From Bacillota bacterium (GTDB lineage: Bacteria > Bacillota > Clostridia > DSM-8532), in assembly GCA_023443745.1 (NCBI GenBank), contig JAEZTB010000059.1:11998-75997 (forward strand): 64,000 nt of DNA, written 5' to 3'. Below, piece after piece: positions 24,643 through 47,889 of the stretch. The position numbers were made by a program, and so were the translations under genes. Position 1 is the first letter of the stretch, and each line of letters opens with the position of its first letter. The notes under the pieces are model-generated. The model was not told where the DNA came from and did not search any database. It saw nothing but the letters and a program-made list of their open reading frames with translations.

Positions 24643-24653
24643 TGATCCCACCC

Positions 24654-25565: not shown

Positions 25566-25706
25566 TGAACAAATACTCCTTTTTTATTCTCATTTTTCAC
25601 GGGGCTGCCCCGCTTGTTTTACAAAAGCAGGGCAGCAGCTCTGCACAAGCTGAACGAATTCAATATTTTTCTAAAATTGCATTATAAAGAATCTAAGGCG
25701 GCAACA

Positions 25707-29117: not shown

Positions 29118-29171
29118 AACAAACCCTCTTTTCATTTTGATTCATTTTTTTGGCAGATTAAATATCCTTTT

Positions 29172-29205
29172 AGCCTGGAATGGCATATACAAACCATCCC
29201 AGGCT
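29172..29205 (-). other. Intercistronic stem-loop downstream of the SBP gene
   Basis: agcctggaatgg / ccatcccaggct (12 bp, 1 mismatch) with a 10-nt loop. No U-tract on the coding strand. Confidence 0.35.
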
Positions 29206-29220
29206 AATTGTCAATGTATG

Positions 29221-30831: not shown

Positions 30832-30897
30832 TTTTTCCTTCCTTTCATGTCATTTTTATATATTTTCTTTGATAAATGGGTTCGGAGAGTATTGCCC

Positions 30898-31779: not shown

Positions 31780-32738
31780 TAGAAAATCCCTTTCTCGCCG
31801 AATTTAATGGCCAACTTATTCGCTATCATCAGCATAACAAACGCAACACAGGATTTGAACATACCCACTGCCGTCGCGAAATCATAGCGCGCATCTACAA
31901 GGCCTATACGATAGACATAGGTTTCAAACACGTCGGCTACTTCGTAAACATTGGGGTTGTAAAGTAAGAATATCTGTTCAAAACCATTGTTCATAATATT
32001 GCCGATCTTCATGAGCAGCAAAACGATAATTGTGCTTTTGATACCGGGCAGTGTGATGCTGATAATCTGACGAATTCTTCCGGCACCGTCAATTTTGGCC
32101 GCTTCATAAAGCTGCGGATCAATATTGGTAAGCGCTGCAAGGAAAATAATCGTATTCCAGCCCATATTATGCCAGAGGTCGGATAGCACCAGAATGGTCC
32201 TAAATTTAGTTTTACTGGCCAGAAAATTAATGGCATCACCACCAAAGGATTTTATGATAACGTTGACTATGCCATTAGACGGAGAGAGGAGATTGATAAC
32301 GATACCGGAGATAACCACCCAGGATAAAAAGTAGGGCAAATACACAATAGTCTGTAGTCCGCGTTTGAATAAAGTGCTTTTGACTTCATTGAGCATAATG
32401 GCCAATAGGATGGGGACGGGAAAACAGACGGCTAATTTATAAAAGCTTATGATAAGAGAATTTCTAAATACTTGAAGAAACGTTGAGCTGCTAAAAAGCT
32501 TACTGAAATGTTTAAAGCCTACCCAATCGCTTCCCCAAATTCCGCTGAAAATATCAAAGTCCTTGAAGGCTATCACGATACCTGCCATGGGCAGATAATA
32601 AAAGGTGATGTAATAGAGGATTCCGGGTATTAATAAAAAATAAATTGCTTTATTATTCATAAAATGATTGAGAAAGCCATCCCGTTTTTTCCTTTGTTTC
32701 TTGAGGACTATTCTCTTATCCAATGTTATGTCTGTCAT
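31779..32738 (-). CDS. ABC sugar permease, LplB-type
   Basis: EAA loop EAAKIDGAGRIRQIISITLP. ATG at 32738 lies 4 nt after GGAGG; the ORF-track start at 32771 lacks an RBS. Confidence 0.85.
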   Translation of the reverse strand: MTDITLDKRIVLKKQRKKRDGFLNHFMNNKAIYFLLIPGILYYITFYYLPMAGIVIAFKDFDIFSGIWGSDWVGFKHFSKLFSSSTFLQVFRNSLIISFYKLAVCFPVPILLAIMLNEVKSTLFKRGLQTIVYLPYFLSWVVISGIVINLLSPSNGIVNVIIKSFGGDAINFLASKTKFRTILVLSDLWHNMGWNTIIFLAALTNIDPQLYEAAKIDGAGRIRQIISITLPGIKSTIIVLLLMKIGNIMNNGFEQIFLLYNPNVYEVADVFETYVYRIGLVDARYDFATAVGMFKSCVAFVMLMIANKLAIKFGEKGIF

Positions 32739-32811
32739 ATTACCTCCAGAGCTTATGATAATTGCTAACAAAATTATATAGGCCGCCCTGTGCTTACTTC
32801 AACGACATAAC

Positions 32812-32995: not shown

Positions 32996-33040
32996 ATAAA
33001 CAAAAGCCCGATTATCCTTTATTTATTGGATTATCGGGCT
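32996..33040 (-). terminator. Rho-independent terminator after nagA
   Basis: Minus strand: agcccgataatcc / ggataatcgggct stem (1 mismatch) followed by tttgtttat. Confidence 0.7.
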
Positions 33041-33066
33041 TGTTCTGGTTGATGTGAAGAATTTGA

Positions 33067-34245
33067 TCACGCTTGAACAACTTTACCGCTGCAAATGATA
33101 TGCTGTATCTCAATATTATCATTGAAAATGACAAGATCTGCAATTTTCCCTGTTTCTATGCTGCCTCTTTCATTGTCTATGTTCAGAATCTGTGCAGGAG
33201 TTATAGTCATCATTTTGATGCTGTCCACCAAAGGAATTCCAGCAATTTTGTAAGCGGTCCGTATCAGTCGATCCGCTGTTGCAATACTTCCCGCAAAGGC
33301 AGAACGATCCGGGAGCTTTGCCACACCGTCCTCAATGATAATTCTTTGACCGTTCTCAAGGCTTCCGGTAATAGATTCTGTTACGTCCTGGCCTGTGCAG
33401 CGCAAGGAATCTGTTATTAGGCAAGTTTTGTCTGTTCCCTTCAGGCGATATACCATATGCAGCAATTCAGGAGGAATGTGGCATCCGTCAGCTATCACTT
33501 CCACTGTCAGAGCTTCTAATGCATAAGCGCTTTCAATAACGCCAAGATAACGGAATCCGCTGCGGCGCGTAATTGTCGACATTCCGGAATACAAATGGGT
33601 AACATGGGTATAATGATGATCCCTTGCCTCTTTTATAGTTGCGTATTCCGCATTGCTATGGCCTATACTTGGCAGGATACCATGTTGATGCAGATAATCG
33701 CCCATTTCCATCGCACCCTTGAGCTCGGGAGCCACCGACCAGCGTTTGATATCACCGTTTGCATAGGAAATAATGTCGGAATATTCCTTAACATCAGGAT
33801 CCTTTATATACTTTGGATCCTGTGCGCCCCTCTGCTCCATGCTAAAATAAGGTCCTTCAAAATGAAGGCCGGGCATATACGGCGCAACGCCTAGGATTTC
33901 TCGGGCTTCACGGAAGCTATCGACTGCACGATACATCTCCTGAAAACCTGCAGAAAGCGTTGTTGGCAGGATGGTTGTCGTTCCATGCATCAGATGGGTT
34001 CTGCAAGCAGTCACGAAAGCCTCTGTAGTGCCATCCATGAAATCAGCACCGCCTGCACCATGTGTATGCATGTCGATAAAACCCGGTGACACATAATTTC
34101 CCCCTGCGTCAATAACTTCTGCGTCACTAGCGCTGGGAACGTCGCCAAAATAAATCTCACTAATTTGGTGATCGACCAGTAAAAGTCCGCCTTTCTCAAT
34201 CCGATCATGCAAGATCAATTGAGCATTATTAATTATTGTTCTCAT
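33067..34245 (-). CDS. nagA: N-acetylglucosamine-6-phosphate deacetylase family amidohydrolase
   Basis: 392 aa. GFIDMHTHGAGG metal site, HFEGP, GHSNA, HLYSGM and ITDS motifs in NagA order. Confidence 0.8.
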   Translation of the reverse strand: MRTIINNAQLILHDRIEKGGLLLVDHQISEIYFGDVPSASDAEVIDAGGNYVSPGFIDMHTHGAGGADFMDGTTEAFVTACRTHLMHGTTTILPTTLSAGFQEMYRAVDSFREAREILGVAPYMPGLHFEGPYFSMEQRGAQDPKYIKDPDVKEYSDIISYANGDIKRWSVAPELKGAMEMGDYLHQHGILPSIGHSNAEYATIKEARDHHYTHVTHLYSGMSTITRRSGFRYLGVIESAYALEALTVEVIADGCHIPPELLHMVYRLKGTDKTCLITDSLRCTGQDVTESITGSLENGQRIIIEDGVAKLPDRSAFAGSIATADRLIRTAYKIAGIPLVDSIKMMTITPAQILNIDNERGSIETGKIADLVIFNDNIEIQHIICSGKVVQA

Positions 34246-34256
34246 AGGGCACCTCT

Positions 34257-35522
34257 TTACTTTGAGAATACATGGGGGTAGACTTTATCCATTGCTGCAA
34301 TAATATCAGCAATGTCCTGTTCGGTGTATGTAGGGCCTATACCAATTCCCACGCATCTTTCTAAATTACCGTCCGTATTTGGACAATCTTTGGCATCGAA
34401 TACAATGTCTTTCCCGTCAAAAGCCGGCCCAAAGGGTGGCATTTCATTATGGGGTAAAGCTTTACTCTTTATCGGATATTTATGAATCAGATTGCAGCAT
34501 GCAGAAGTCAACTGACATGGAATTCCTTCGGCGTTCATATAGCTTATAAACTTTGAACCATGTTCCTTTGACGGGAACATCATAATAAATGCAATTCCAC
34601 AATCGCCTTCCTCATAACGAACGCTGATTTCCTTCCATGAGGCCACATGCTCTCTTAGAACCGCATGCCATTTACGGCAAGTCGCAAGCATGCCACCCAT
34701 TTTCCGGAGCTGTGCCAGAAGAAAAGCTGAGGAAAGCTCATTCATTCGAAGCTGAATTCCCGCAAATGAATAAACTTCATCTGTCAAAGAAGGATTTGAA
34801 AGACGATCAGCAAATGTTTTTCTCACGAAGCCAAGATCATGATACCGAACCGCACGGACAAACATCTCTTCATTGTTTGTAATGACCATGCCACCTTCAC
34901 CGCAGGTAAGAATCTTGTGGGTCTGGAAGCTGAAAATAGCAATGTCACCAATAGTACCCAGTATCTTTCCATGGTAATCGCCACCACAGCACTGTGCGCA
35001 GTCTTCAATCAAAATCAGCTTATGGGCATGGGCAATTTCCATAATGCGTTGCATTTTGGCGGGGCCGCCCTGATAATGAACGACTACGACAGCCTTGGTT
35101 CTGTCGGTTATTTTCGATTCCAGGTCATCCGGATCTATATTCAGATCCCCCCCAATATCTGCAAATACAGGTGTCACGCCCATTGCAACCAGTGCGCAGT
35201 AGTTCGAATACCAAGAAAATGAAGGTATAATCACTTCGCTGCCCGGCCCCAGATTTGCCGCAGCAAATGCGCACATCAGTGCTGACGTACCGCTGTTCAC
35301 TGCAAGAGTATATTTAACACCGAAATGTTCTGCAAATACTTTTTCTAATAAATCTGTTTTTTGCGGATTACCTACTCCATAATGCCGAAACGGACTTTTT
35401 TCACGGACAACGTCCGCTAATTCGTCCAATTCTTCCTGTCCTATCATGGATGCGCCAATCATATTTGTAGGTAGCGGTGTCGTTCTGATAGGTTCCCCGC
35501 CAAAAAATGCCAACTTTTTCAT
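34257..35522 (-). CDS. DegT/DnrJ/EryC1/StrS-family PLP-dependent sugar aminotransferase
   Basis: AVNSGTSAL and the PLP-lysine motif SFQTHKILTCGEGG. Confidence 0.85.
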   Translation of the reverse strand: MKKLAFFGGEPIRTTPLPTNMIGASMIGQEELDELADVVREKSPFRHYGVGNPQKTDLLEKVFAEHFGVKYTLAVNSGTSALMCAFAAANLGPGSEVIIPSFSWYSNYCALVAMGVTPVFADIGGDLNIDPDDLESKITDRTKAVVVVHYQGGPAKMQRIMEIAHAHKLILIEDCAQCCGGDYHGKILGTIGDIAIFSFQTHKILTCGEGGMVITNNEEMFVRAVRYHDLGFVRKTFADRLSNPSLTDEVYSFAGIQLRMNELSSAFLLAQLRKMGGMLATCRKWHAVLREHVASWKEISVRYEEGDCGIAFIMMFPSKEHGSKFISYMNAEGIPCQLTSACCNLIHKYPIKSKALPHNEMPPFGPAFDGKDIVFDAKDCPNTDGNLERCVGIGIGPTYTEQDIADIIAAMDKVYPHVFSK

Positions 35523-35544
35523 GATTACCTCCCTTGATTATCCA

Positions 35545-36570
35545 CTAAAACCCCCGATGTTCTTTTGAAGATTGATAGATGCGTAAAATCAATTCAACTG
35601 CTTTTCTTGCTTCTTCTCCCGAAACTGAGGGTGGTTTTTTATTTAAAATCTCATAAACGATTTGTTTCAACTGCGCCCTATGGTCCGCGCAATCAAATGC
35701 TGCAGGGTCGGCAAATTCTTTTGCATTTTTTGCTTCCTTATATTCTTCAATTTCATCATCGATAATATCATGATCTCTAAAAACCCAATGCACAATCCTA
35801 TTGTCACGAACAACAGCTGTGCCTCGTTCGCCTGTTATTTGTAATTCAGCAGGGAATCCTCCATAGGTGGAAGTGGTTGCAATAAATGAACCGATGGCAC
35901 CGTTTACAAATTCCAGAGAAGCTACCGCTGTATCCTCGGTCTCAATTCCTTTATGCAGCAGCGTACGGGTATAGCCAAACACACGGGTAACGTCGCCTAC
36001 CAACCAAAGCAGCAGATCCACGTAATGAATACTTTGATTCATCAATGCTCCGCCACCGTCCAATGACCAGGTACCGCGCCATGAGGATTCATGATAATAT
36101 TCAGGGGCGCGATACCAGCGTACATTCGCGTTGGCATTGATCATTTTTCCGAATCGTCCGCTGTCAACTGCTTTTTTCAGAAACTGATAAACTGGTTTAT
36201 AGCGATTATTGTATATGCCGTGTAATTGTACTTTGCTGCACTCGCACGCATGTATAACGGCATCTATTCTTTCAGAAGTTATTTCTATTGGCTTTTCAAT
36301 GATGACATGCTTTCCTGCTTTTGCCGCCAAAATGGCAATGCCACCATGGGCTCCGCTGGGAGTACAAATGATAACTGCATCTACATCATCGCGTGCCAAT
36401 AGTTCCTCGTTGGTGGCGCATACATCAGCTCCGCATCTTTCTGCCGCACGCATGGCGCTCTCTACCGAACGGGAAGATATGGCTACAACTTTAGCATCAG
36501 ATATGTCCTTAATTGCATCTATATGCTTTTCAGAGATCAAACCTCCGCCAATTATGCCTATACCTAACAT
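35545..36570 (-). CDS. Gfo/Idh/MocA-family NAD(P)-dependent sugar oxidoreductase
   Basis: N-terminal Rossmann motif MLGIGIIGGGLISEKH and the EKP motif (VIIEKPIE). Confidence 0.85.
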   Translation of the reverse strand: MLGIGIIGGGLISEKHIDAIKDISDAKVVAISSRSVESAMRAAERCGADVCATNEELLARDDVDAVIICTPSGAHGGIAILAAKAGKHVIIEKPIEITSERIDAVIHACECSKVQLHGIYNNRYKPVYQFLKKAVDSGRFGKMINANANVRWYRAPEYYHESSWRGTWSLDGGGALMNQSIHYVDLLLWLVGDVTRVFGYTRTLLHKGIETEDTAVASLEFVNGAIGSFIATTSTYGGFPAELQITGERGTAVVRDNRIVHWVFRDHDIIDDEIEEYKEAKNAKEFADPAAFDCADHRAQLKQIVYEILNKKPPSVSGEEARKAVELILRIYQSSKEHRGF

Positions 36571-36573
36571 TTA

Positions 36574-37467
36574 TCAACCTTCCAATAATTTTAATGCATT
36601 CTCACGGCAAATTTTATTATATGTGGTTTGGGTAATTTTCCCTGATTCCACCGCATCGTCCAGGAACTTGGACAGGTAACGGTAATTCGTTGCGTTACAA
36701 TAGTCTAAACCGAATAGCAATTTATCCTGGAACTCTTCCAGGAAACGATAACCGAACTCAGGATCTCTCATAATGGCGTTCTCACCTGAGCCTGCAGATA
36801 AGTCCCCATACATGTTGGGACATTTACGCATGAGCTCCACAACGCGTCCACCCGGAGTAACAGGACCTTTTGGATTACCTGCCCTGTTTTCGTTGGTGCA
36901 ATCCCCGCTGATTTCGGACCACCACTTATGAGAGTGACCAATGAAAATCAGGTTCGGGAATTTCTTAAGGGATGCTTCTAAGCGTGGCAATCCAAGATCG
37001 TCTATAATTCCATAATCATCCCCGCCCGCTTTGCCGATGTGGAACAAAATTGGCAGACCGCACTTCTCGGCATGATAGAACAGATTCTGCATCATAGGAT
37101 CATCAATGTAGAGATTGGCAGTCAGTTCGCCGATACCTTTCGCACCCAAAGACTTATAGTGTTCCATAACAATAGAGAGGTTGGCGTCTGCCGTATTCTT
37201 CAACCAACGTGGGTCAATATTGCAGAACCACCAGCCGACTGTTTCAGGATGCTTTTCCACCAACATTCTGGCATCACGATTGGTTAGTAAATCGTTATGA
37301 TGCTCCGGAGAAACGATGGGGAGTTGAACACCTTTTTCTACGCCAACTGCATCGTACATCTTCCGAATTTCTTCAACGGTTGTTGGATAAAATTTACCAT
37401 CTCCCATGCCCGGATATTCGTGCTGGAAGACATTATGCGCATGGAAATCTATTTTTGGAACTATCAT
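36574..37467 (-). CDS. Metal-dependent TIM-barrel hydrolase (amidohydrolase_2-like)
   Basis: N-terminal HxH (IDFHAHN), internal HIG and GHSH motifs. Confidence 0.7.
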   Translation of the reverse strand: MIVPKIDFHAHNVFQHEYPGMGDGKFYPTTVEEIRKMYDAVGVEKGVQLPIVSPEHHNDLLTNRDARMLVEKHPETVGWWFCNIDPRWLKNTADANLSIVMEHYKSLGAKGIGELTANLYIDDPMMQNLFYHAEKCGLPILFHIGKAGGDDYGIIDDLGLPRLEASLKKFPNLIFIGHSHKWWSEISGDCTNENRAGNPKGPVTPGGRVVELMRKCPNMYGDLSAGSGENAIMRDPEFGYRFLEEFQDKLLFGLDYCNATNYRYLSKFLDDAVESGKITQTTYNKICRENALKLLEG

Positions 37468-37594
37468 ATGGACCTCCTAATTATAACTAAATTAAGATGG
37501 GCCCCCACCCCGCCTCTTTAGGCGTGGGATGCCACTTAATATGAAATATCAATAAGATTTCTGAGCTTAGTGCGAAGAAAATTTATTCATTTTT

Positions 37595-37618
37595 TCAGTG
37601 GGAGATATCTCCCACTGA
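37595..37618. repeat. Perfect 24-nt palindrome tcagtgggagat|atctcccactga
   Basis: Seen directly. Lies in the 222-bp gap between the SIS and amidohydrolase genes. T-run on the plus-strand 5' side only. Confidence 0.6.
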
Positions 37619-37636
37619 AAGCGTTGAATAACGGGT

Positions 37637-37668
37637 AACTAGGCGGTAAGCCTATCTCCCGCCTAGTT
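37637..37668. repeat. 10-bp GC-rich stem-loop aactaggcgg-N12-ccgcctagtt
   Basis: Seen directly. The sequence gggagata (loop plus flanking stem base) recurs in the neighbouring palindrome. Confidence 0.55.
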
Positions 37669-37689
37669 GAAACAGTGTGATTCAAGCGG

Positions 37690-38451
37690 TTATAAGCAAC
37701 GGATTCTGTCGCGGAAGCGATGCAGGAACTGATTGTTCCATTCGTCACCACCGGGGCAATTTCCACTTCGCCAAATCGGAGGATTAACGCCTTCATTAAC
37801 CAGCATGTTAACGGCTTCAATGATAATGCTGTTCATTACATAAGCGTTTGCAAACGTACTTAAAGCACCGATCTTCTGCGGCAGACCTTCTAGCTCAAGA
37901 ACTGCGTCTCCTAGCTTAACCTTACAGTCCACTGAGCAATCTACGATATCATGCAGATTCTTTTTTGAAGGATGACGTGCAGGATGATCCTTAGGACAAT
38001 TGTTTGCGTGTTCATGAGAGCTGACGCCGATAACCTTAGCACCACGCTGCTTAGCTGTCAATGCCGAATCAATGGTAGCTGAGTTGATTCCATAGGCATT
38101 ACATACAATCAGTAAATCACCTTGACCAATACCATAGTCCTCAATTACAATTTTACCGTAACCCGGTAATCTCTCTACCGCCATAGATTTCAGGGCACCA
38201 TCAGTTAGCATAGTTTCTTGATTCAAAATTGCACTGACATGCATTAATCCACCGGCTCTGAAGAATATCTCCATGGCTGCAAGATTGGAATGTCCGCCGG
38301 GACCAAATACATAGACAATCTTATCCTGCTTAACCTGTTCTGCAACAATACGTGCCGCTTCAATAATATGTTCACGCTCGGACGCGCGAATCTCGTCAAT
38401 TATTCCGATTACCTCTTTGTAGTAGAGGTCCATAACTGTTCCTTCAACCAT
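37690..38451 (-). CDS. SIS-domain phosphosugar-binding protein (UPF0309-like)
   Basis: RBS AAAGGAG 6 nt upstream. VYVFGPGGHS and LLIVCNAYGINS SIS-fold motifs. Confidence 0.7.
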   Translation of the reverse strand: MVEGTVMDLYYKEVIGIIDEIRASEREHIIEAARIVAEQVKQDKIVYVFGPGGHSNLAAMEIFFRAGGLMHVSAILNQETMLTDGALKSMAVERLPGYGKIVIEDYGIGQGDLLIVCNAYGINSATIDSALTAKQRGAKVIGVSSHEHANNCPKDHPARHPSKKNLHDIVDCSVDCKVKLGDAVLELEGLPQKIGALSTFANAYVMNSIIIEAVNMLVNEGVNPPIWRSGNCPGGDEWNNQFLHRFRDRIRCL

Positions 38452-38541
38452 AATGTTCTCCTTTCTGATTGTGCATGAGTGTTAGTTTTTTATGAAATAA
38501 TGGAACACAACAAAGTCATTATTGTGTTCCATTTGTCAGTA

Positions 38542-39417
38542 TTAATCATTGATCCATGGGGGTGTACTGGGTAAAGCTTTTTCAAAATGCTCCAGATATT
38601 TCTGCATCTCGTTGCCTGCATATATCCCCTTTTGGAACAAGTCAATGACCGTCGTATAAAATTCCTGCCATGAACGCTCTTCTTCATTGGGGCAGATAGG
38701 ATAAAAGAGAATTCCATTTGCTGCGGCTGCATCCTGATCGCCTGGAGCGTCCCCAATCATGATGGCCTTATTTGAATCATAGAAGTGCTTTATGTATCCA
38801 ATAATCTCTTTTTTACTTCCATCTTCCTGCGCTCCCAGTAATGCTACATGTTGATCCAGCTCGTGTTCATGCCACTCTTTCAGCAAGGCCTCACGAGGCG
38901 TTGCAGATACAATTACAATATCCGCAAATTGACTTAACCGCTCCAAACTTTCTCTAACGTACGGAAATGGTGGAATATCGCGAACCATTTGTGCAACACG
39001 CCGATTCATATTATAGGACCATTCCAACGTGCGAGCCATAACAGGATCATCGGTCAGCTTTGCAACTGCATCGTTATTGAGAATCGGAGCTGTTTCAACC
39101 CATTTATGGAGTGATTCATAGTCAGGCATCCTAAAGTTACGAGACTTAACCTCTTTGCGCTCAGCAAGAAGATCCAGCACATTGATCAGCGCGTGAAAAC
39201 GGCTGCAGCCACGGGTTTTTGAATACAAATTCACATATTCCCACGCCTCGCGGGCATACTTGGAGATGGCCTGCAATCCCCAAGTATCGATTGTTGCTGG
39301 GCAGAAGCACTCTTTATGCTTGATCTCCATGGTATCGAATGCACATCCATCGGAATCGATACAAACAAGATATTTATGCTTGGGGACGTAGTTTCCCTTT
39401 GTTACGTTAATGTCCAT
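38542..39417 (-). CDS. HAD-superfamily hydrolase (putative sugar-phosphate phosphatase)
   Basis: Motif I CIDSDGCAFD, motif IV IMIGDAPGDQD. Confidence 0.7.
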   Translation of the reverse strand: MDINVTKGNYVPKHKYLVCIDSDGCAFDTMEIKHKECFCPATIDTWGLQAISKYAREAWEYVNLYSKTRGCSRFHALINVLDLLAERKEVKSRNFRMPDYESLHKWVETAPILNNDAVAKLTDDPVMARTLEWSYNMNRRVAQMVRDIPPFPYVRESLERLSQFADIVIVSATPREALLKEWHEHELDQHVALLGAQEDGSKKEIIGYIKHFYDSNKAIMIGDAPGDQDAAAANGILFYPICPNEEERSWQEFYTTVIDLFQKGIYAGNEMQKYLEHFEKALPSTPPWIND

Positions 39418-39429
39418 AGGTTCTCCTTT

Positions 39430-40266
39430 TTACAGCAGATACTTCTCGATTGCTTTGGCAAGCCCATCTTTGTCATTGTCGTCGGTTACATCATATGAAA
39501 TGTCTTTGAGGGCCTGAGGCGAATTCCCCATTGCAATACCCAACACGGATTTTTCGATGATGCATCCATCCATACCAAGAGAATCCCCGATACTCATAAC
39601 GTTTTCATAGGTAATGCCAAGATGATCCAACAACACCTGGATTGCAGCAGCTTTGTCCAGACGGGAACAAGTAAATTGCATGTTTAAAGGAGTGCCATCA
39701 AGGAAATTGACAAAATCCATGGCTTCCAGCTGTTTCATAAACGGGTCTTGTTTTTCTTTAGGAACCCCATATAGGTTAAATTTTTCAACACTAAGCCTGT
39801 TCTCAAGGAAAAAGTCGGATAACTTACCGTCGATGGCAATCTGGCGTCCGGTTAACACGTACCATACATGATGCGGGGGAACAGGATACCGATGCAGCGC
39901 ATCGTTGACTTCCCGTTCAAAGTACAATTTGCCCTCTGCTGCGATCTCACTGTAAACCTGCTGCCCCTCATACATGCGACAAATTTCAGCAGCTTCTTCA
40001 GGTGTAAAACAGTCACCTTTATAAATGACCTCGTTCTTTAAGCGGTCAATGATACGGCATCCGCTTGCAGATACCCAATAACGGAATGCTTTATCTTCTT
40101 CAATCTGGGGTGGAAACATATCTGCGCTTCGTCCGGTGCAAGGAATACATATAATCCCTTTTTTCACTGCTTCACGCAAGGCATGCATATTTCTGGGTGA
40201 TATAAAGACTTGATCTTTTTGCAGGGTCGTACCGTCAAAATCAAAGAACAGAACTTTGATATTCAT
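39430..40266 (-). CDS. HAD-IIB (Cof-type) sugar-phosphate phosphatase
   Basis: Motif I LFFDFDGTTL, CTGRS, motif IV SIGDSLGMDG. Confidence 0.8.
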   Translation of the reverse strand: MNIKVLFFDFDGTTLQKDQVFISPRNMHALREAVKKGIICIPCTGRSADMFPPQIEEDKAFRYWVSASGCRIIDRLKNEVIYKGDCFTPEEAAEICRMYEGQQVYSEIAAEGKLYFEREVNDALHRYPVPPHHVWYVLTGRQIAIDGKLSDFFLENRLSVEKFNLYGVPKEKQDPFMKQLEAMDFVNFLDGTPLNMQFTCSRLDKAAAIQVLLDHLGITYENVMSIGDSLGMDGCIIEKSVLGIAMGNSPQALKDISYDVTDDNDKDGLAKAIEKYLL

Positions 40267-40291: not shown

Positions 40292-41971
40292 TTACATATC
40301 AACGTCTGCATTGCCTGTCAGCCTGAAAAACAGCATTAACGAAGCAACCATGGTTATAGTAAGAATGGTGGATAAGGCCGCTGCAGTACCGTAAGCAGAA
40401 CGATTGACTTCTGCAAAGATTGCAGTAGACATTGTGGATGTCTTGCTTGTATACAGCATCAATGTAGAAGACAATTCCTGGATCAGCGTAATCCAGCTTA
40501 AGATTGCCCCTGATACAATGCCGGGAATCATGGCAGGCATTGTAACCTTAAAGAATGTTGGCATTGATGAATATCCCAAAGACAAAGAGGCTTCCTCAAT
40601 ACTCGGGTTAATCTGGCGAAGTATAGCTGCACTGGAGCGAACAGTATAAGGCATTCTTCGGATAACGTACGCGACAATAATCAATGCAGAACCGCCGGTC
40701 AATACCAAAGATCCTGAATTGTATGAAATCAGCAGCATTAAACCAAAGATCGTTCCGGGAATAACGTAAGGCAGCTGAATACAAGCATCCAAAAAACGAG
40801 AGAAAGCATTCTTTTTCCGTACTGTAACATAAGCAAACATTGTACCGAGCAGTACGATAATGATGATTGCCGTAATGCCAAATTTAAAGGTATTAATAAT
40901 AGAAGCCTTTGCTTTGGCCCATGCAAGAACATAGTTGGTAAAGGAAAAGCCTTCAACCATAATTGACCCGCCGGTAAAGTTTTTAAAGGAAATAATTGTA
41001 ATATAGATTGTTGGGAGAACGGCAAGCAGGGTTACAGTATATACAAAGATATGAGCAAGAACTCCGCCGGCACCCTTCATAGGCCTTGGCTCTGGCGGGT
41101 TAAGCATACTCATATTATAATTCTTACGGCTGAAATACATCTGCAACATGAAAACAATAATTGCAAGCAAAATCATAATGAAAGCAATAGAAGATGCAAA
41201 GAATGCATTAGAGCCCGTCTCGGATAACCACTCATTATAAACAAGAACCGGCATGACGGTGTAACCTTCGCCAATTAAGCGCGGGGTGCCGTAATCTGCA
41301 AAAGCACGCAGAAAAACAATAGCAGCACCGGCGAGGATAGTGGGTGTAATGAGTGGTAAACTGATTTTAAGAATCTTATTCAGCCCATGATAACCAAGGC
41401 TTTCTGCTGCTTCTCCAAGGGCCTTGTCCACCTTCTTCAGCGCACCTTTGGTGTACATATAAATGTAGGGAAACAATTTAAGTGTAAATACAAGCAAAAT
41501 ACCGTTGTAGCCGTATATGGTGGGCAGAGTAATACCAAAGGTATTCTGGAAGAACATTGTAACAACACCCTTACGTCCCAACATCAGAATCCAGGAGTAG
41601 GCACCGATGAACGGCGGAGAGAACATGGATATAATAATCAAAACGTTAATGGCCTTGGCTAATTTGACTTTAAAGTTTGTGGTGATATACGCAAGTGTAA
41701 CGCCGATGACAATCGTCAGGGCAGTTGCTAAGAATGTGACTTTAACGCTGTTCCAGATAGCATCGCGATAGTAAGCTCTGGAAAAGAATTTCACAAAGTT
41801 ACCAAAGGAGAACACACCTACCGCATCCTTCGTCTGAAATGCGTTTATAACCAGACGCCCTACGGGGTATACCAGGAACATGGCAAAGAAAATCAACGAA
41901 ACAAGCGTTATCAGAGTCCAAAAGTCAATGCGATAGCCTTTTAAAAATTCACGGTTGCCCTTCTTAAGCAT
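40292..41971 (-). CDS. Fused 12-TM ABC importer permease (FbpB/AfuB/ThiP-type, two BPD_transp_1 halves)
   Basis: Two EAA loops (GEAAESLGYHG..., EEASLSLGYSS...). ATG at 41971 follows GAAGGGGTG and overlaps the ATPase stop by 8 nt; the ORF-track start at 41989 is TTG. Confidence 0.85.
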   Translation of the reverse strand: MLKKGNREFLKGYRIDFWTLITLVSLIFFAMFLVYPVGRLVINAFQTKDAVGVFSFGNFVKFFSRAYYRDAIWNSVKVTFLATALTIVIGVTLAYITTNFKVKLAKAINVLIIISMFSPPFIGAYSWILMLGRKGVVTMFFQNTFGITLPTIYGYNGILLVFTLKLFPYIYMYTKGALKKVDKALGEAAESLGYHGLNKILKISLPLITPTILAGAAIVFLRAFADYGTPRLIGEGYTVMPVLVYNEWLSETGSNAFFASSIAFIMILLAIIVFMLQMYFSRKNYNMSMLNPPEPRPMKGAGGVLAHIFVYTVTLLAVLPTIYITIISFKNFTGGSIMVEGFSFTNYVLAWAKAKASIINTFKFGITAIIIIVLLGTMFAYVTVRKKNAFSRFLDACIQLPYVIPGTIFGLMLLISYNSGSLVLTGGSALIIVAYVIRRMPYTVRSSAAILRQINPSIEEASLSLGYSSMPTFFKVTMPAMIPGIVSGAILSWITLIQELSSTLMLYTSKTSTMSTAIFAEVNRSAYGTAAALSTILTITMVASLMLFFRLTGNADVDM

Positions 41972-43067
41972 TGCTATGCACCCCTTCAATTAAAGTGGTT
42001 TTCTTATCTTTGTCAAATACATTGATGCGTTTTGTATTGACTGTCAAGTAAATCGTTTCATTAAAATTGTATATGCGCTGCGCGGAATTTGTGTCGCTGC
42101 ATACTTCTACCTCGGTACCATTATCAAAGGCTACCTCATACTTGATGTTTTTCCCAAGGAATTGCTTCAGCTTAACCGTGCCTTTCATACCCTGCCCTTC
42201 GGGTGCGACAATAAACTCTTCAGGACGAACACCGACAATAACTTCCCTGCCAACTTCCAAGGGAAAGATATTGTTCATTTCGATTTCCAAACCGGTTTCC
42301 ATTCTTATCTTAGTAACACTACCAACCTCTGTTACAGTACCGTTAATCATGCTGGAACTGCCAATGAAGTTGGCAACAAAGGTGTTGTATGGACGGGAAT
42401 AAATACGCTCGGGAGAATCGCAATGATAGATATCGCCTTTATTCATAACCGCAATACGATCAGATATTGCAAGGGCTTCCTCCTGATCATGGGTGACGTA
42501 AACAGTGGTTATTCCCAATTCCCTTTGCAGCCTGCTGATAACTGTACGCATTTCAAGACGCAGCTTTGCATCAAGATTGGAGAGGGGTTCGTCCATGAGC
42601 AGAACCTGAGGGCGCACAACGACGGCACGAGCAAGTGCAACACGCTGCTGCTGACCACCTGAAAGCTTATTCGGGTAGCGATCACGATACTCGGTCAACT
42701 GAACGATATCGAGAATTTCTTCTACACGACTCTTGATCTCTGCCTTGGACAATTTCTTATTTTTCAAACCGTATTCGATATTACGGTATACTGTCATATT
42801 GGGAAATATTGCATAGCTTTGAAAAACCATTCCGAAATTGCGCTTGTATACAGGGACATTATTTATTACTTTATCATCAAAAGCAATGGTTCCAGCCTCG
42901 ATGGAGTTAAAACCAGCAATCATTCGCAGCAAAGTTGTCTTGCCACAGCCACTGGGGCCGAGCAGAGTAAATAATTCACCGGGCTTTATGTCTACTGACA
43001 GATCATGAATAACAACATTATCTTCGTATTGTTTTTTGATATTTTTTATATGGATAGCAACAGCCAT
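41964..43067 (-). CDS. ABC importer ATPase (FbpC/PotA/MalK-like with C-terminal regulatory domain)
   Basis: Walker A GPSGCGKTT, signature LSGGQQQRVALARA, Walker B LLMDEPLSNLD. Confidence 0.9.
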   Translation of the reverse strand: MAVAIHIKNIKKQYEDNVVIHDLSVDIKPGELFTLLGPSGCGKTTLLRMIAGFNSIEAGTIAFDDKVINNVPVYKRNFGMVFQSYAIFPNMTVYRNIEYGLKNKKLSKAEIKSRVEEILDIVQLTEYRDRYPNKLSGGQQQRVALARAVVVRPQVLLMDEPLSNLDAKLRLEMRTVISRLQRELGITTVYVTHDQEEALAISDRIAVMNKGDIYHCDSPERIYSRPYNTFVANFIGSSSMINGTVTEVGSVTKIRMETGLEIEMNNIFPLEVGREVIVGVRPEEFIVAPEGQGMKGTVKLKQFLGKNIKYEVAFDNGTEVEVCSDTNSAQRIYNFNETIYLTVNTKRINVFDKDKKTTLIEGVHSNA

Positions 43068-43142: not shown

Positions 43143-44261
43143 TTATTTAACGCTAGTCCACAGATCCTGGAATTTTTCCTTCAGAGAATCGGAATTCTTT
43201 TCAACCCACTCACTGGGATATGGGATTGAATTCAAATCTTTTGTTGCAGAAATTCCTTCAACGGTGAAGTCAACATCAGAACGGATGGAACGCTGATAAA
43301 GCTGAGATGCACAAGCCTGTTGATACTCTTTAGAAGTAAAGAAGTCAACAAGCAGACGAGCGTTGTACTCGTTTGCGGAGCCCTTAATGATGCCGCAGTA
43401 AGAGGTTCTTAAGGTGATACCTTCTTTTGCATAAACCGCACTTACATCTGCGCCGTTAACGATATTCTCAATAACCTTTTCCTCATTGGTGATACCAACT
43501 GCGTACTCGCCATTAGCAACACCGGTGTAAACAGCTGAGGAGCTGGAGGAAATCTTACCGCCAAGATTAGCGATGAACTTTTGAATGAAGTTCCAGCCAT
43601 CATCCATATTACCTGTGCCATTCATTGCTGCCAGCATGTTGACGACTTGCTCACGACCAGAGGAGGCCGATGATGGGTCTGCAAAAATAATGTTGCCCTT
43701 CAAAGCAGGGTTTGCAAGGGATTCCCACCCGTCAACTGTTACACCCAGATCCTTAACCATTTTATTGTTAACCATGATGGTGTTAACATTGATCTGGATA
43801 GCAGTAAACTTCTCATTGGGGGACACAAACTCAGCAACACAGGATGCTGCATTAGGTGAAACATAAGGAGTGAGATGGTCTTCCAGTGCAGTGTAAACTG
43901 CAAATGAACCACCCATCATAACGTCACCCTGAGGGTTGCCGGCTTCCGCAATAATTCTGTTCTGTAATTCACCGGAACCTGCGGAAACAACCTCCAACTC
44001 GATGTCGGGATGGAGATCTGCCCACATTTGCTGAATCATTTCGTTTTGGTTGGTGGAGCTTGCGCTGTACAGAACAACGCTCTTGGTCTTTGGAAGTTCT
44101 GGCTCTTTTGAGGGTTCTGCGGATTGGCTGGCATCCGGCGTACTAGAGCTGGACGGAGCTACCGAGGGCGAGGGCTGAGGGTTCTTTTGGGTACCACATG
44201 CCGTAAATACCATTGCAAGAACCATAAGTACACTAATGAGAGCAATAAGTCTTCTTTTCAT
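43143..44261 (-). CDS. Extracellular solute-binding lipoprotein of the Fbp/Afu-type ABC importer
   Basis: Lipobox MVFTACG, Ser/Pro linker, FbpA/PotD-like class II SBP body. Confidence 0.85.
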   Translation of the reverse strand: MKRRLIALISVLMVLAMVFTACGTQKNPQPSPSVAPSSSSTPDASQSAEPSKEPELPKTKSVVLYSASSTNQNEMIQQMWADLHPDIELEVVSAGSGELQNRIIAEAGNPQGDVMMGGSFAVYTALEDHLTPYVSPNAASCVAEFVSPNEKFTAIQINVNTIMVNNKMVKDLGVTVDGWESLANPALKGNIIFADPSSASSGREQVVNMLAAMNGTGNMDDGWNFIQKFIANLGGKISSSSSAVYTGVANGEYAVGITNEEKVIENIVNGADVSAVYAKEGITLRTSYCGIIKGSANEYNARLLVDFFTSKEYQQACASQLYQRSIRSDVDFTVEGISATKDLNSIPYPSEWVEKNSDSLKEKFQDLWTSVK

Positions 44262-44363: not shown

Positions 44364-45137
44364 CTATTTCTGCAAAATCTCCTTCAGAATTGAGAAGCAA
44401 GGCTCATCAACATACATCATAACGCCGGGCTTATGACGCAAAGCTGTTGCAGGGCAGCGTTCGGAAATTTCCCCCAGTATTGTATCTGCAAGGGCCTGTG
44501 CTTTTGCTTTTGTTGGGATAAAGCAAAAATGTTTGTCGGCAGAAATCAGGGTCGGTATAGTCAAAGTAAGTGCGATTTGGGGAACCTCGTCCAGTGTTGC
44601 AAAGCATCCATCACGAACCTGCTGGTTGCGGCACATCAGATCCAATTCAACTGGCTTCATAATCTTGCTGTCATGGAAATCGGCAACCGCAGGATCATTA
44701 AATGCGATGTGCCCATTTTCTCCGACACCCATGAAAACAATATCCACCTGCTCGGCCATAAGCTTGTTTCCGTACTTTTCGCACTCCTCCAGCGGATCTT
44801 TGGCCATTCCATCAATATAATGGACAGCTTTCATTTCTACACGCTCGAAGTAATCTTTCAGAAAAGAACGAAAGCTTCTCGGGTCATCACCTGGAATTCC
44901 AATATATTCATCCATATGAAATGCCTCTATGCGGCTAAAATCAATACTTTTATCCGCAAAAAAACGATCCAGGAAATCCGACTGTGACGGTGCTGCTGCA
45001 AAAATGCATCTGATTGTCTGCTTCTGATTTAGCAAATTAAGGACATATTCCGCCGCCTCCCGGGCTGCTAACGCTCCCATCTCCGAACGAGTCGGGAAAA
45101 CGGACAAAGTGATTTCATCGAACTGCATCCTTCTCAC
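44364..45137 (-). CDS. nagB: Glucosamine-6-phosphate deaminase/isomerase family protein
   Basis: FHMDEY and GVGENGHIAFNDP motifs of the NagB / 6-phosphogluconolactonase fold. Confidence 0.75.
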   Translation of the reverse strand: MRRMQFDEITLSVFPTRSEMGALAAREAAEYVLNLLNQKQTIRCIFAAAPSQSDFLDRFFADKSIDFSRIEAFHMDEYIGIPGDDPRSFRSFLKDYFERVEMKAVHYIDGMAKDPLEECEKYGNKLMAEQVDIVFMGVGENGHIAFNDPAVADFHDSKIMKPVELDLMCRNQQVRDGCFATLDEVPQIALTLTIPTLISADKHFCFIPTKAKAQALADTILGEISERCPATALRHKPGVMMYVDEPCFSILKEILQK

Positions 45138-45276: not shown

Positions 45277-45305
45277 ATTATAGAGAGAGCTTTCCGATTT
45301 GTCAA
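45277..45305 (-). promoter_or_regulatory. Consensus sigma-A promoter for the nagB-like/ABC operon (TTGACA-17-TATAAT)
   Basis: Minus strand reads TTGACA aatcggaaagctctctc TATAAT with an exact 17-nt spacer. Confidence 0.65.
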
Positions 45306-45482: not shown

Positions 45483-45517
45483 ATGACAGTATGAATCAAT
45501 TTAACAGAAGGTGTTTT

Positions 45518-46594
45518 ATGTCCAAGCCGAAGCCGAAAAATAAAGTTGTCATCAGCGATGTGGCCAAAGCGGCTCATTGTTCTGTGGCCACTGTTTCCCG
45601 TGTATTAAGCAACAGTGAGTATCCGGTAAGCGATGCGCTCAGGCAGCGCATTATGTCAGTCGCCGATGAATTGGGATATATGCCCAATCCCTATGGCAGA
45701 ATTTTACGGACCTCCATCAATCCGTCCATCGGTATCATTATTCCTTCCTTCCAGAATCCTTTTTTCAGTCAGATCGTAATGGGTATCGAGCATATCGCGA
45801 GCAAACGTAATTATATGTCCATGGTATTTGCCTCCCAGCGTGATCCCGCACTGGAGCGCAAATATATAAGTGATTTGATCCAAAAACGGATTAGCTGTCT
45901 GATGCTCTGTTCCGTTGACGACAATTCTGATACGCTGGAACAATATATTGCTGCCGGCGGATTGGCCTGTGTTTTTGAATCGGACTTTCCTCCCCTGAGC
46001 AATGCGCTCAGTGCAACGGCCGATATGTTTAAAGCGGCGCAAATGGCGGCTGAGCACTTAATTTCACAGGGGCACACCAAAATTGCTTTTTTGACACCCC
46101 CCCTGAGTAGGTCATCCCGTTACCAGCGTGTTGATGGCTGTAAATTCGCTATGGCGATGCACGGACTTTCATTTGAACGTCAGGACATCATTTCCGTTCC
46201 ATATGAGGACGATGTGGACGATGGGCTGTACGAATACAGCATCGGAATGGTATTGGCCAAGAAAATGCTTGAGCAGGAAAAAAAATATACCGCTGTTATT
46301 GCTTTGAACGATTTGATCGCATGCGGCGTCATAGCAGGGCTGAAGCAGCAAAATATTCGCGTCCCCGAGGATATTTCCGTTATTGGCTTCGACGATATTC
46401 CCAATGCCTTTATGATTAGCCCGCAGCTAACTACCATACGCCTTTCGGGTCATTTGATCGGGCAAAGGGCAACACAGCTGGTCATTAATTCCTTTGAATC
46501 CCATGAAAGCATTAATAATGTGACTCTGTCGGTAACACCCGAGCTTATCGTCCGTGAGTCCGTTCGCAATATACAGCATGAGAAGGAGACTTAA
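45518..46594 (+). CDS. LacI-family transcriptional regulator
   Basis: HTH VVISDVAKAAHCSVATVSRVLSN. ATG at 45518 lies 4 nt after GAAGGTG; the ORF-track start at 45491 would be essentially leaderless. Confidence 0.85.
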   Translation: MSKPKPKNKVVISDVAKAAHCSVATVSRVLSNSEYPVSDALRQRIMSVADELGYMPNPYGRILRTSINPSIGIIIPSFQNPFFSQIVMGIEHIASKRNYMSMVFASQRDPALERKYISDLIQKRISCLMLCSVDDNSDTLEQYIAAGGLACVFESDFPPLSNALSATADMFKAAQMAAEHLISQGHTKIAFLTPPLSRSSRYQRVDGCKFAMAMHGLSFERQDIISVPYEDDVDDGLYEYSIGMVLAKKMLEQEKKYTAVIALNDLIACGVIAGLKQQNIRVPEDISVIGFDDIPNAFMISPQLTTIRLSGHLIGQRATQLVINSFESHESINNVTLSVTPELIVRESVRNIQHEKET

Positions 46595-46596
46595 CC

Positions 46597-47889
46597 ATGA
46601 ACAAAGCTGAGCTTCAGGCTTTGCTGTCATTCTATCAAAAGGAGCTTAAGGAAAACATCCTCTTCTTTTGGCTTCCCCGTTGTGTAGACTCCAAAAACGG
46701 GGGCTTTTTCAATTGTTTTGATAATTCGGGGCGAACCCTCGTCAGTTCTGACAAGTACACCTGGTCACAGGGGCGGTTTGTCTGGATATGGACAAAACTC
46801 GCGGCTATGCAGGGCGGTACCTTTTCCAGCAATGAAAAGGCACTGTTTCTTCAATATGCAAAGCAGGGCCGGGACTTTCTTTTCCGTCACTGTCTGATTG
46901 GCAGAGACGATTGGCGGTGCGTTTTTCTCATGGATGCAAAAGGAAATCCGAAATATGTTAACGCCGTTGATGTTCTGGATTCCAGCATTTTTGCGGATTG
47001 CTTTGTCACCGCCGGATTTGCTTTGTCTTCTGCGGTTACAGGAGATGCCGAATCATGGGATTTCGCCAAAAATTTGTATACTTCTATTTGCGGCCGTATT
47101 CAGCAGAATACCTTCAATTCGCTTCCGTATCCTCTTGGAGAAGGCTACCGCATGCACAGCATTCCCATGATCGCCACCAATCTTTCCTGTGAAATGTACC
47201 GCGCTGCACAAATTATGGAGCCCGGCTCATGTCCGGAATATGCAGCTGATATTCATCGGTTCAGTTCCGATATACTGAATCATTTCGTCGACAGCAAGAA
47301 TATACTGCATGAGATTATCTCCAAGGATAATACTTTTGCAGACGGTCTTTTGGGAGATCACATCAATCCGGGCCATACCCTTGAAGACATGTGGTTCCAG
47401 CTGGATGCCGCAGATATTTTGGAAGAACCGCAGCGTTTAGATAAAATCAGCAAAATTGCAAAAAATGCATTCGAGCTTGGATGGGATGCCGTCCATGGTG
47501 GATACTTACATTTTACAGATTCAAACGGCGGCGAAATTCTGGGGCGTTTTGAAGACGATCCCTGTAAGGAACCTCAGCTGCGCCAGGTCTATGACGATTG
47601 GGACAGCAAATTATGGTGGGTCCACTCCGAAGCGCTCTATACATCCCTTTTATTGTATTTCCGAACGAATGATCCGCAATTTCTTTCATATTATTCCCGG
47701 GCTGCCGCTTACGTATTTCAGACGTTCCCCAGTAAAGACCCTTCCATAAGAGAATGGGAACAGATCCGTACCAGGGACGGAAAGCCTCTGGAAAAAGTAG
47801 TGGCGCTTCCGGTGAAGGATCCCTATCATATTATTCGTAATTTCATCCTCATTATCGAATTATTGGAGCAAGAGCTGGCCCGCGCTTAA
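46597..47889 (+). CDS. N-acylglucosamine 2-epimerase (AGE) superfamily (alpha/alpha)6-barrel isomerase/epimerase
   Basis: DSKNGGFFNCFD, KYTWSQGRFVWIW, INPGHTLEDMWF and WWVHSEALY motifs typical of AGE, cellobiose-epimerase and aldose-ketose isomerase family members. Confidence 0.8.
   Translation: MNKAELQALLSFYQKELKENILFFWLPRCVDSKNGGFFNCFDNSGRTLVSSDKYTWSQGRFVWIWTKLAAMQGGTFSSNEKALFLQYAKQGRDFLFRHCLIGRDDWRCVFLMDAKGNPKYVNAVDVLDSSIFADCFVTAGFALSSAVTGDAESWDFAKNLYTSICGRIQQNTFNSLPYPLGEGYRMHSIPMIATNLSCEMYRAAQIMEPGSCPEYAADIHRFSSDILNHFVDSKNILHEIISKDNTFADGLLGDHINPGHTLEDMWFQLDAADILEEPQRLDKISKIAKNAFELGWDAVHGGYLHFTDSNGGEILGRFEDDPCKEPQLRQVYDDWDSKLWWVHSEALYTSLLLYFRTNDPQFLSYYSRAAAYVFQTFPSKDPSIREWEQIRTRDGKPLEKVVALPVKDPYHIIRNFILIIELLEQELARA

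Follow-up and report, generated by a model that had tools for sequence, protein, structure and literature searches.

A 64,000-nucleotide stretch of a Bacillota bacterium (Clostridia; DSM-8532), hereafter the window (contig JAEZTB010000059.1, positions 11,998 to 75,997, of assembly GCA_023443745.1), carries an 11-gene operon that runs from position 45137 to position 33067 on the minus strand, with a NagB-like gene first and nagA last. A divergent lacI gene and an adjoining gene for an AGE-family epimerase belong with the operon as a larger unit. The system is most likely a LacI-controlled catabolic operon for an extracellular phosphorylated N-acetyl amino sugar. We tentatively favour a reading, based on sequence comparison, in which such a sugar is taken up and converted to fructose-6-phosphate, and a second amino group is removed from it by transamination and ketoreduction. 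The candidates for these last two reactions are an adjacent pair of enzymes, a DegT-family aminotransferase and a Gfo/Idh/MocA-family dehydrogenase (Gfo).

An initial annotation of positions 33067–40266 had described seven genes in tight succession on one strand. The seven open reading frames (ORFs) are all present there on the minus strand, with intergenic gaps of 11, 22, 3, 222, 90 and 12 bp, and profile matches confirm their families as named. The limits of the complete operon are set by a consensus promoter, a strong terminator and an identical gene set in a closely related locus, L093. Upstream of the NagB-like gene is a putative sigma-70-type promoter (TTGACA-17-TATAAT; 45277..45305, minus strand), identified in a consensus scan as a 12/12 match. 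An intrinsic terminator (32998..33045, minus strand; hairpin of -21.1 kcal/mol, z -5.7, followed by the U-run UUUUGUUUAU) closes the operon after nagA, and a gap of 295 bp separates nagA from the next block of genes. In L093, the stretch from the NagB-like gene to nagA is made up of exactly these 11 genes, with unrelated genes beyond it, and the orthologous operons of L093 and of L099 and L100, described below, likewise end after nagA.

The LacI-family repressor (45491..46594, plus strand; Pfam LacI and Peripla_BP_1/3) is encoded divergently from the operon, and its gene holds the same position in L093, L099 and L100 (75% identity). Co-transcribed with lacI is the gene for the AGE-family (N-acyl-glucosamine 2-epimerase-like) enzyme (46597..47889, plus strand; Pfam GlcNAc_2-epim), which scores 197 bits against the NCBIfam AGE model, under its cut-off of 600, and has orthologues in L099 and L100 (72%), L094, L096, L097 and L007.

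Conservation and modularity of the operon

We compared 14 distinct loci that encode a DegT protein of at least 49% identity and have usable flanks: the window, L007, L009, L011, L013, L014, L016, L019 and L093 to L098. Gfo is encoded within 10 kb of DegT in 13 of them, and an orthologous hydrolase of the Amidohydro_2 family in 11. All 14 loci have ABC (ATP-binding cassette) importers together with LacI, AraC or two-component regulators, and in none is there a glycosyltransferase or nucleotidyltransferase beside DegT. The linkage to glycosyltransferases that the initial annotation gave as an example of a biosynthetic sign is not seen in these loci.

The gene order of the window recurs in L093 (80–92% protein identity), and the same genes occur in rearranged order in L094, L096 and L097, showing that the arrangement is not due to chance. 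The conservation of the neighbourhood, which the initial annotation had put forward as a check, is therefore borne out, and it extends to operons without the pair. Thermoclostridium stercorarium (L099, taken from a complete genome, L100 and the metagenomic L101) has the same operon order, with 68–87% protein identity, but without Gfo and DegT: AGE, LacI, NagB-like, importer, Cof-type HAD, HAD-IA, SIS_2, Amidohydro_2 and NagA, with nagA directly after the Amidohydro_2 gene at a distance of 70 bp. T. stercorarium is not among the best 80 of 595 DegT relatives in a species-representative collection, which is indirect evidence that it may lack the pair elsewhere in its genome as well. Since the T. 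stercorarium operon does without it, Gfo/DegT is an accessory cassette, dispensable for the operon as a whole.

Simpler operons still (L105–L109) consist of the NagB-like gene, nagA, the two HAD genes and the importer. The operon is thus layered: an importer with two HAD enzymes, NagA and the NagB-like protein; then SIS_2, Amidohydro_2 and AGE; then Gfo/DegT. The two HAD genes are always present in the DegT loci that have an Afu/PhnS2-type importer like that of the window (window, L093, L094, L096 and L097) and never in those with a CUT1-type importer (L007, L009, L013, L019 and L095). NagA, the NagB-like protein, SIS_2 and AGE are found with the cassette under both importer types (L007, L013, L096 and L097). 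At the other extreme, L009, L011 and L019 contain little beyond an importer, a regulator, Gfo and DegT, an arrangement that is sensible only if the imported amine becomes an ordinary sugar. In a tree of DegT sequences, a well-supported clade unites the CUT1-type loci with the other Afu-type loci and leaves out the window and L093. The Afu-type loci therefore do not form a single clade, which indicates that the cassette was joined to importer types more than once.

At L098:2669-16425, DegT, Gfo and two Amidohydro_2 proteins are encoded together with a glycyl-radical enzyme, an HpcH/HpaI aldolase, a GNAT protein and an AP_endonuc_2 TIM barrel, and a BadF-type kinase gene lies between two SIS_2 genes. 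L016 shares with L098 a part made up of an M24 peptidase, LacI, DUF4432 and two Amidohydro_2 proteins, and additionally encodes two BNR-repeat proteins.

The DegT/Gfo pair and the Amidohydro_2 hydrolase

The DegT protein (34257..35522, minus strand; DegT_DnrJ_EryC1, E = 7.7e-75) retains the pyridoxal phosphate (PLP) lysine, K203, which is invariant across 18 orthologues, identifying the protein as an aminotransferase and not a His-type dehydratase. Its top match in the Protein Data Bank (PDB) is KdnA (5k8b; E = 5e-55, 190 bits, 37% identity), followed by an unnamed DegT protein (8gyh) and then by 2-deoxy-scyllo-inosose aminotransferases. NtdA (4k2b) comes at about rank 31 with 104 bits, and WbpE scores about 100 bits. 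KdnA aminates free 8-oxo-Kdo, that is, a free and not a nucleotide-bound sugar; by sequence, the DegT protein groups with enzymes of free rather than nucleotide-bound substrates.

The Gfo gene (35545..36570, minus strand; N- and C-terminal GFO_IDH_MocA domains) lies 22 bp from the DegT gene. The top PDB matches of its product are 3q2k and 3q2i (E = 3e-58, 200 bits, 39% identity over 321 columns), which were deposited under generic names and which we take to be the UDP-GlcNAcA 3-dehydrogenase WlbA. The protein shares EKP and NQxxHYVDLL motifs with both, and its next solved relative, a glucuronide 3-dehydrogenase, scores 111 bits. The likeness to a WbpB/WbpE-type pair noted in the initial annotation is therefore upheld by the adjacency of a WlbA-like Gfo and a DegT gene. 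WbpB/WbpE (WlbA/WlbC) and GnnA/GnnB are likewise adjacent Gfo-family and DegT-family genes, and make 3-amino sugars. These known pairs, however, act on UDP-sugars and belong to O-antigen or lipid A biosynthesis clusters, whereas the pair described here lies with an importer, a repressor, NagA and a NagB-like protein and is proposed to run in reverse. The UDP-sugar dehydrogenase, N-acetyltransferase, 2-epimerase and glycosyltransferase set of polysaccharide clusters is found neither in the window nor in the related loci with Pfam listings.

The Amidohydro_2 protein (36574..37467, minus strand; Pfam PF04909, E = 5e-13) is a metal hydrolase of an uncharacterized subfamily with an HxH motif, and searches by sequence returned no solved relative. 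Foldseek comparison of its AlphaFold2 (AF2) model (pLDDT 90) returned distant lactonases, decarboxylases and hydratases (TM score about 0.6, at most 18% identity), a result that did not settle between lactonase, decarboxylase, hydratase and deacetylase activity.

The importer and its two HAD enzymes

Three minus-strand genes encode an Afu/PhnS2-type organophosph(on)ate ABC importer: a lipoprotein substrate-binding protein (43143..44261; lipobox ...VFTAC), an ATPase with a TOBE domain (41964..43067; Pfam ABC_tran and TOBE_2) and a fused double permease (40292..41989; two BPD_transp_1 stretches). Their top NCBIfam models are PhnS2 (117 bits), PhnT2 (385 bits against a cut-off of 458) and PhnU2, respectively, and all three matches fall under the cut-off. 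The closest solved relatives of the substrate-binding protein are AfuA (4r72, 4.9e-18) and HptA (6lkg, 8.5e-18), ahead of PLP-binding and 2-aminoethylphosphonate-binding proteins. AfuA binds glucose-6-phosphate, fructose-6-phosphate and sedoheptulose-7-phosphate (PMC4546632), and HptA binds glucose-6-phosphate (PMC8050422). Given these relatives and the PhnS2/T2/U2 models, the ligand of the importer is likely to be an organophosphate or a phosphonate. The combination of binding protein, TOBE ATPase and fused permease is that of AfuABC from Actinobacillus and Citrobacter (PMC4546632) and of PhnS2T2U2, but sequence identity to these systems is low and, in this operon, the importer is combined with two HADs and with enzymes for amino sugars. 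The operon also differs from PhnSTUV–PhnWX clusters, in that its aminotransferase is of the DegT type rather than a class V PhnW and no match to PhnX was found. Family scans detected no kinase or phosphotransferase system (PTS) domain in any product of the operon.

The first of the two HAD enzymes (39430..40266, minus strand) is a Cof-type HAD-IIB sugar-phosphate phosphatase by family (Pfam Hydrolase_3, E = 5e-32; TIGR00099, 104.8 bits, under the cut-off of 137). It accompanies the importer in L093, L094, L096, L097, L099–L102 and L105–L109. The second (38542..39417, minus strand) is an HAD-IA enzyme with an enlarged cap, a phosphatase or a phosphomutase, recognized by a weak HAD_2 match and the motifs DSDGC, SAT, K and GDxxxD. 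It has no solved sequence relative and no match among NCBIfam models, PhnX included. The nearest folds to its AF2 model (pLDDT 94) are the AlnB phosphatase, beta-phosphoglucomutase and mannitol-1-phosphate phosphatase (TM score about 0.5). These are generic superfamily matches that do not settle between phosphatase and mutase; TM scores in the fold searches with this protein and with Amidohydro_2 span 0.45–0.63. The HAD-IA family is very widespread: over 500 metagenome contigs encode members of at least 49% identity. Where it occurs apart from the importer operon (metagenomic loci L111–L180), its usual neighbours are 6-phosphogluconate dehydrogenase, a PFK-like kinase, a LarA-like protein, an SDR protein and a UxaE-like epimerase, a setting that looks like a separate uncharacterized sugar-phosphate or sugar-acid pathway.

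The initial annotation had likened the dehydrogenase, aminotransferase and HAD phosphatase to the NtdC/NtdA/NtdB trio (KabCAB), which acts, with the same enzyme types, on a sugar phosphate and not on a nucleotide sugar. This comparison does not hold as a trio: HAD genes occur without the pair in L099–L102 and L105–L109, and the pair occurs without HAD genes in the CUT1-type loci. The HADs are thus not co-inherited with the pair, NtdA is a weak relative of the DegT protein and the context is degradative.

Just downstream of the Afu-type DegT locus L094 lies a gene (L094:9532-12093) for a secreted protein of 853 amino acids with a NAGPA (phosphodiester glycosidase) domain. This domain hints at a possible origin of the imported phospho-sugar in GlcNAc-1-phosphodiester polymers.

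The amino-sugar core

The last gene of the operon encodes an N-acetyl-amino-sugar-6-phosphate deacetylase of the NagA type (33067..34245, minus strand; Pfam Amidohydro_1), which scores 269.6 bits against NCBIfam nagA (TIGR00221), above the equivalog cut-off of 225.65. The first gene encodes a NagB-like deaminase/isomerase of the Glucosamine_iso family (44364..45137, minus strand; Pfam PF01182), in which the MDEY and GHIAFN(D)P motifs align with those of Bacillus subtilis NagB (2bkv), FNEP reading FNDP. Both genes are extra copies, as the same genome has another such pair at C3:612-614 kb; the NagA encoded there has 51% identity to the operon NagA, which is thus a dedicated paralogue. Elsewhere in this genome (C17:141900-156000), paralogues of LacI (38%) and of the NagB-like protein (46%) are encoded next to a two-component system and another Afu-like importer. 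Gene calling splits the NagB-like gene of T. stercorarium into two ORFs (130 and 125 amino acids) in the complete genome CP110889 (L099:3430-4210), whereas in the T. stercorarium-like assembly L100 (3428-4210) the gene is intact, at 260 amino acids. The split call may reflect a frameshift in one strain.

Compared with the classical GlcNAc-6-phosphate route through NagA and NagB, the operon has in common NagA, the NagB motifs and the presumed end product, fructose-6-phosphate. That route, however, has no place for SIS_2, Amidohydro_2, AGE, the HADs, Gfo or DegT, there is no PTS or kinase here, and the NagB-like protein falls short of the nagB cut-off.

The SIS_2 protein is of the UPF0309 type (37690..38451, minus strand; SIS_2/PRK02947, 245.7 bits), sharing the SIS fold of NagS, the GlcNAc-6-phosphate dehydratase of Streptomyces (PMC12680351), and of the MurQ etherase, and in the operon it has NagA as a neighbour. 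It is a distant relative of Streptomyces NagS (SCO4393; PDB 9eol, 1.4e-33, 119 bits) and, in an alignment to 9eol read against the published description, keeps residues H53, R64, E94, D179 and N228 of that enzyme (PMC12680351). True NagS is confined to Streptomycetaceae at 58.7% identity or above (PMC12680351). The SIS_2 protein falls outside that family: the match is distant, the genome is one of the Clostridia and not of the Streptomycetaceae, and the neighbourhood is different, without synteny to dmdR1. A second amino-sugar-like operon in the same genome (C3:573000-592000) encodes four UPF0309 SIS_2 paralogues and a DegT-like aminotransferase (26% identity), so that SIS_2 and DegT proteins co-occur a second time. 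This operon also encodes a CE4 deacetylase, a URO-D-like protein, a RACo corrinoid activator with DUF1638, an M55 D-aminopeptidase, a LarA-like protein and a GH4 glycosidase.

Proposed route

Two lines of evidence bear on the nature of the substrate. A phosphorylated compound is indicated by the AfuA/HptA-like character of the binding protein, its lipoprotein nature, the absence of a kinase or PTS, the tie between the HADs and the importer, and the minimal L105–L109 operons. An amino sugar is indicated by a NagA above its cut-off, the conserved NagB motifs and the NagS catalytic residues kept in the SIS_2 protein. What the sequences show is which genes are present, where the operon begins and ends, how its proteins are related to known families and how its modules are conserved. 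From this evidence we infer a route in which every chemical step is a proposal, as are the substrate itself, the position at which it is attacked, the part played by each hydrolase and the direction in which the pair runs.

The importer would bring in a phospho-compound, from which the two cytoplasmic HADs would strip or move phosphate, for example by transfer of a 1-phosphate to the 6-position or by loss of a second phosphate. The AGE-family enzyme and the SIS_2 protein, the latter through MurQ/NagS-like chemistry, would adjust C2 and C3, with Amidohydro_2 contributing a hydrolytic step. Where the pair is present, the KdnA-like DegT protein would hand an amino group other than that at C2 to a 2-oxo acid, leaving a keto sugar, and the WlbA-like Gfo protein would turn the keto group into a hydroxyl. 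NagA and the NagB-like protein would finish the route, giving fructose-6-phosphate, acetate and ammonia. The pair would in effect reverse the WbpB/WbpE logic, with a sugar that is free or phosphorylated in place of a nucleotide sugar, and would extend the range of the operon to a diamino or otherwise aminated sugar.

The deaminating direction of the pair appears to be the most economical reading. The initial annotation had proposed that dehydrogenase, aminotransferase and phosphatase, run in reverse, remove a second amino group; that idea survives for the pair, but the HADs are not part of the module and the pair is an accessory and not the core of the operon. Consistent with the view that the gene set is not a described pathway, we found no published account of it in the literature searched, and a 2025 review of gut amino-sugar metabolism does not mention a transaminase route.

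Regulatory features

A palindrome near the promoter, AATCGATT, was considered as a LacI operator but shows no enrichment in the window, where it matches 6 times and 5.3 matches are expected, and it has no copy ahead of the downstream block described below; this result says nothing for or against regulation common to both blocks. Within the operon, a structured spacer of 222 nucleotides separates the SIS_2 and Amidohydro_2 genes (37468..37689, minus strand; minimum free energy -82.9 kcal/mol, z -6.7) and contains a perfect 24-nucleotide palindrome. It has no second copy in the same genome and no Rfam match, and an Rfam scan of 32–48 kb of the window likewise returned nothing. The spacer is absent from L093 and L099, in which the corresponding gap is 14–18 bp. 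It may serve as an internal attenuator or a processing site, or be what is left of an insertion.

The neighbouring sialidase-like/lyase block

Downstream of the operon, positions 22459–32771 encode a CUT1 importer, a sialidase-like enzyme, a DHDPS-type lyase and an FAD oxidoreductase, with their own two-component regulator. The terminator, the gap after nagA and the gene content of L093 identify this block as a separate transcription unit. Homologues of its three enzymes were sought within 10 kb of DegT at 80 DegT loci and beside the HAD-IA gene at 80 further loci. No such homologue lies near DegT in the loci of at least 49% identity or beside HAD-IA in the 80 further loci, the sole exception in the survey being a weak FAD-oxidoreductase match (22% identity) in L032, the DegT of which is 36% identical. 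A link between sialidase-like proteins and DegT through L016 was considered and rejected, as its BNR protein has 24% identity to that of the window over 104 residues.

The lyase scores under both the DapA and the NanA cut-offs, and the lyase, sialidase and transporter genes are not co-inherited with the NagA and NagB genes as in a nan-type sialic-acid cluster. The catabolic setting described in the initial annotation is retained as regards LacI, the importer with its binding protein, NagA and the NagB-like protein, but not as regards the lyase, which belongs to the other unit. It is further supported by the lack of glycosyltransferases and nucleotidyltransferases in about 14 loci. The lyase gene and the gene for the PF12831 FAD oxidoreductase are adjacent (22459-25565, 2 bp apart), and the two are duplicated at C3:5466-7748 of the same genome (37% and 41% identity).

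Alternative explanations

Several observations weigh against the reading that we favour. The NagB-like protein scores 114.5 bits against NCBIfam nagB (TIGR00502), under the cut-off of 236.9. In the SIS_2 protein, the phosphate-binding serines S91, S119 and S121 of NagS are replaced by M, N and Y, and distant UPF0309 homologues from Clostridium and Paenibacillus are inactive on GlcNAc-6-phosphate in vitro (PMC12680351). Two HADs are hard to explain if the imported sugar is already a 6-phosphate. Amidohydro_2 is kept without DegT in L099–L102, and its presence in T. stercorarium shows that it is not simply a deacetylase that feeds DegT. Lastly, IolG, an inositol dehydrogenase, is the top NCBIfam model of Gfo (151 bits, under the cut-off), which together with the likeness of DegT to inosose aminotransferases makes a cyclitol conceivable. 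The substrate might accordingly be an amino-cyclitol, an inositol phosphate or an aminophosphonate conjugate. The HADs would then dephosphorylate it after uptake, and Gfo and DegT would be an inositol-type dehydrogenase and an inosose-type aminotransferase, respectively. We consider this unlikely. The matches that speak for it, which include those of DegT to 2-deoxy-scyllo-inosose and scyllo-inositol aminotransferases (about 1e-41), the best fit of the importer to the putative 2-aminoethylphosphonate transporter PhnS2/T2/U2 and the presence of a 2-aminoethylphosphonate-binding protein among the relatives of the binding protein, are all under curated cut-offs, and Gfo scores 200 bits with WlbA against 88 with the best inositol dehydrogenase structure. 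Moreover, the proteins co-conserved with the cassette in the window, L093, L096, L097, L007 and L013 are N-acetyl-hexosamine enzymes (NagA, the NagB-like protein, AGE and the NagS-like SIS protein), and the operon contains no PhnW, PhnX or iol genes.

It is quite unlikely, in our judgement, that the pair instead serves a repair or side branch, handling reactive keto or dicarbonyl products of SIS/NagA chemistry (chromogen-type compounds or a 3-deoxy-osulose) or re-epimerizing a hydroxyl through a keto intermediate. Reduction of a keto sugar is a useful electron sink for fermenting anaerobes, T. stercorarium manages without the pair and the SIS_2 protein keeps the NagS catalytic residues, all of which would suit such a role, as would the toxic product formed in Streptomyces when NagS is followed by NagA (PMC12680351). 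However, L009, L011, L019 and L095 have Gfo and DegT with an importer and a regulator but no SIS_2 or NagA, arguing that the pair has its own imported substrate, and an intact PLP lysine aminotransferase is unneeded for epimerization or detoxification. A more specific version of the idea in the initial annotation has the cassette deaminate 2,4-diamino sugars, which the sialidase-like enzyme and the DHDPS-type lyase encoded next door would release from di-N-acetylated nonulosonates (pseudaminic or legionaminic acid, for example) or from bacillosamine-type sugars. The two blocks are indeed adjacent on the same strand of the window, BNR-repeat proteins adjoin DegT in L016 and the two NagA paralogues of L096 would meet the needs of a di-N-acetyl substrate. 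Comparison nevertheless gives this source no support, since homologues of the block are missing from the closely related and orthologous loci and the BNR protein of L016 is barely related to that of the window. A terminator and 295 bp separate the blocks, the sialidase/lyase block has its own importer and regulator, and a 6-deoxy sugar could not carry the 6-phosphate used by NagA and NagB; we regard this version as very unlikely. Least probable of all, and by our estimate highly improbable, is biosynthesis or salvage, in which an imported hexose phosphate would be oxidized and aminated by Gfo and DegT and dephosphorylated by an HAD, giving a kanosamine-like sugar by NtdCAB logic or an envelope precursor. 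Although a dehydrogenase, an aminotransferase and HAD phosphatases do share one operon and AfuA-type importers carry glucose-6-phosphate, the HADs are inherited with the importer regardless of the pair, the pair is found without them and NtdA matches DegT with 104 bits against 190 for KdnA. The operon further includes a sugar-type repressor, its NagA and NagB-like enzymes are degradative, and no exporter, acetyltransferase, glycosyltransferase or nucleotidyltransferase is encoded in it, in L093 or in L099/L100. Permeases of the MatE, EamA or Mem_trans type and a GNAT acetyltransferase are encoded at some more distant related loci, but glycosyltransferases and nucleotidyltransferases are absent there too.

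Implications

Amino sugars are a major source of carbon and nitrogen in the gut and in soils, and the textbook routes are limited to taking the amino group from C2 of 6-phosphorylated hexosamines. Beyond the catabolic operon that we favour for the window, it is possible, though we hold this with some reserve, that Gfo/DegT (with or without Amidohydro_2) is a portable cassette of Clostridia and many other phyla that removes amino groups beyond the reach of NagB by glutamate transamination and ketoreduction, and that in this operon it has been joined to an undescribed uptake route for phosphorylated N-acetyl amino sugars. Extracellular sources could then include, for example, fragments of teichoic acid, phosphoglycan or lipid A.

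If this is correct, the cassette would explain how bacteria use the diamino sugars and unusual amino sugars found in the envelopes of microbial cells, and the ABC route would explain the uptake of phosphorylated amino sugars. It would also give first physiological roles to the UPF0309 SIS proteins outside Streptomyces, to a new Amidohydro_2 subfamily and to a widespread HAD-IA family, and would correct the 'biosynthesis' label carried by the DegT genes of catabolic loci. T. stercorarium, which is cultured and has the operon without the pair, would provide a natural control.

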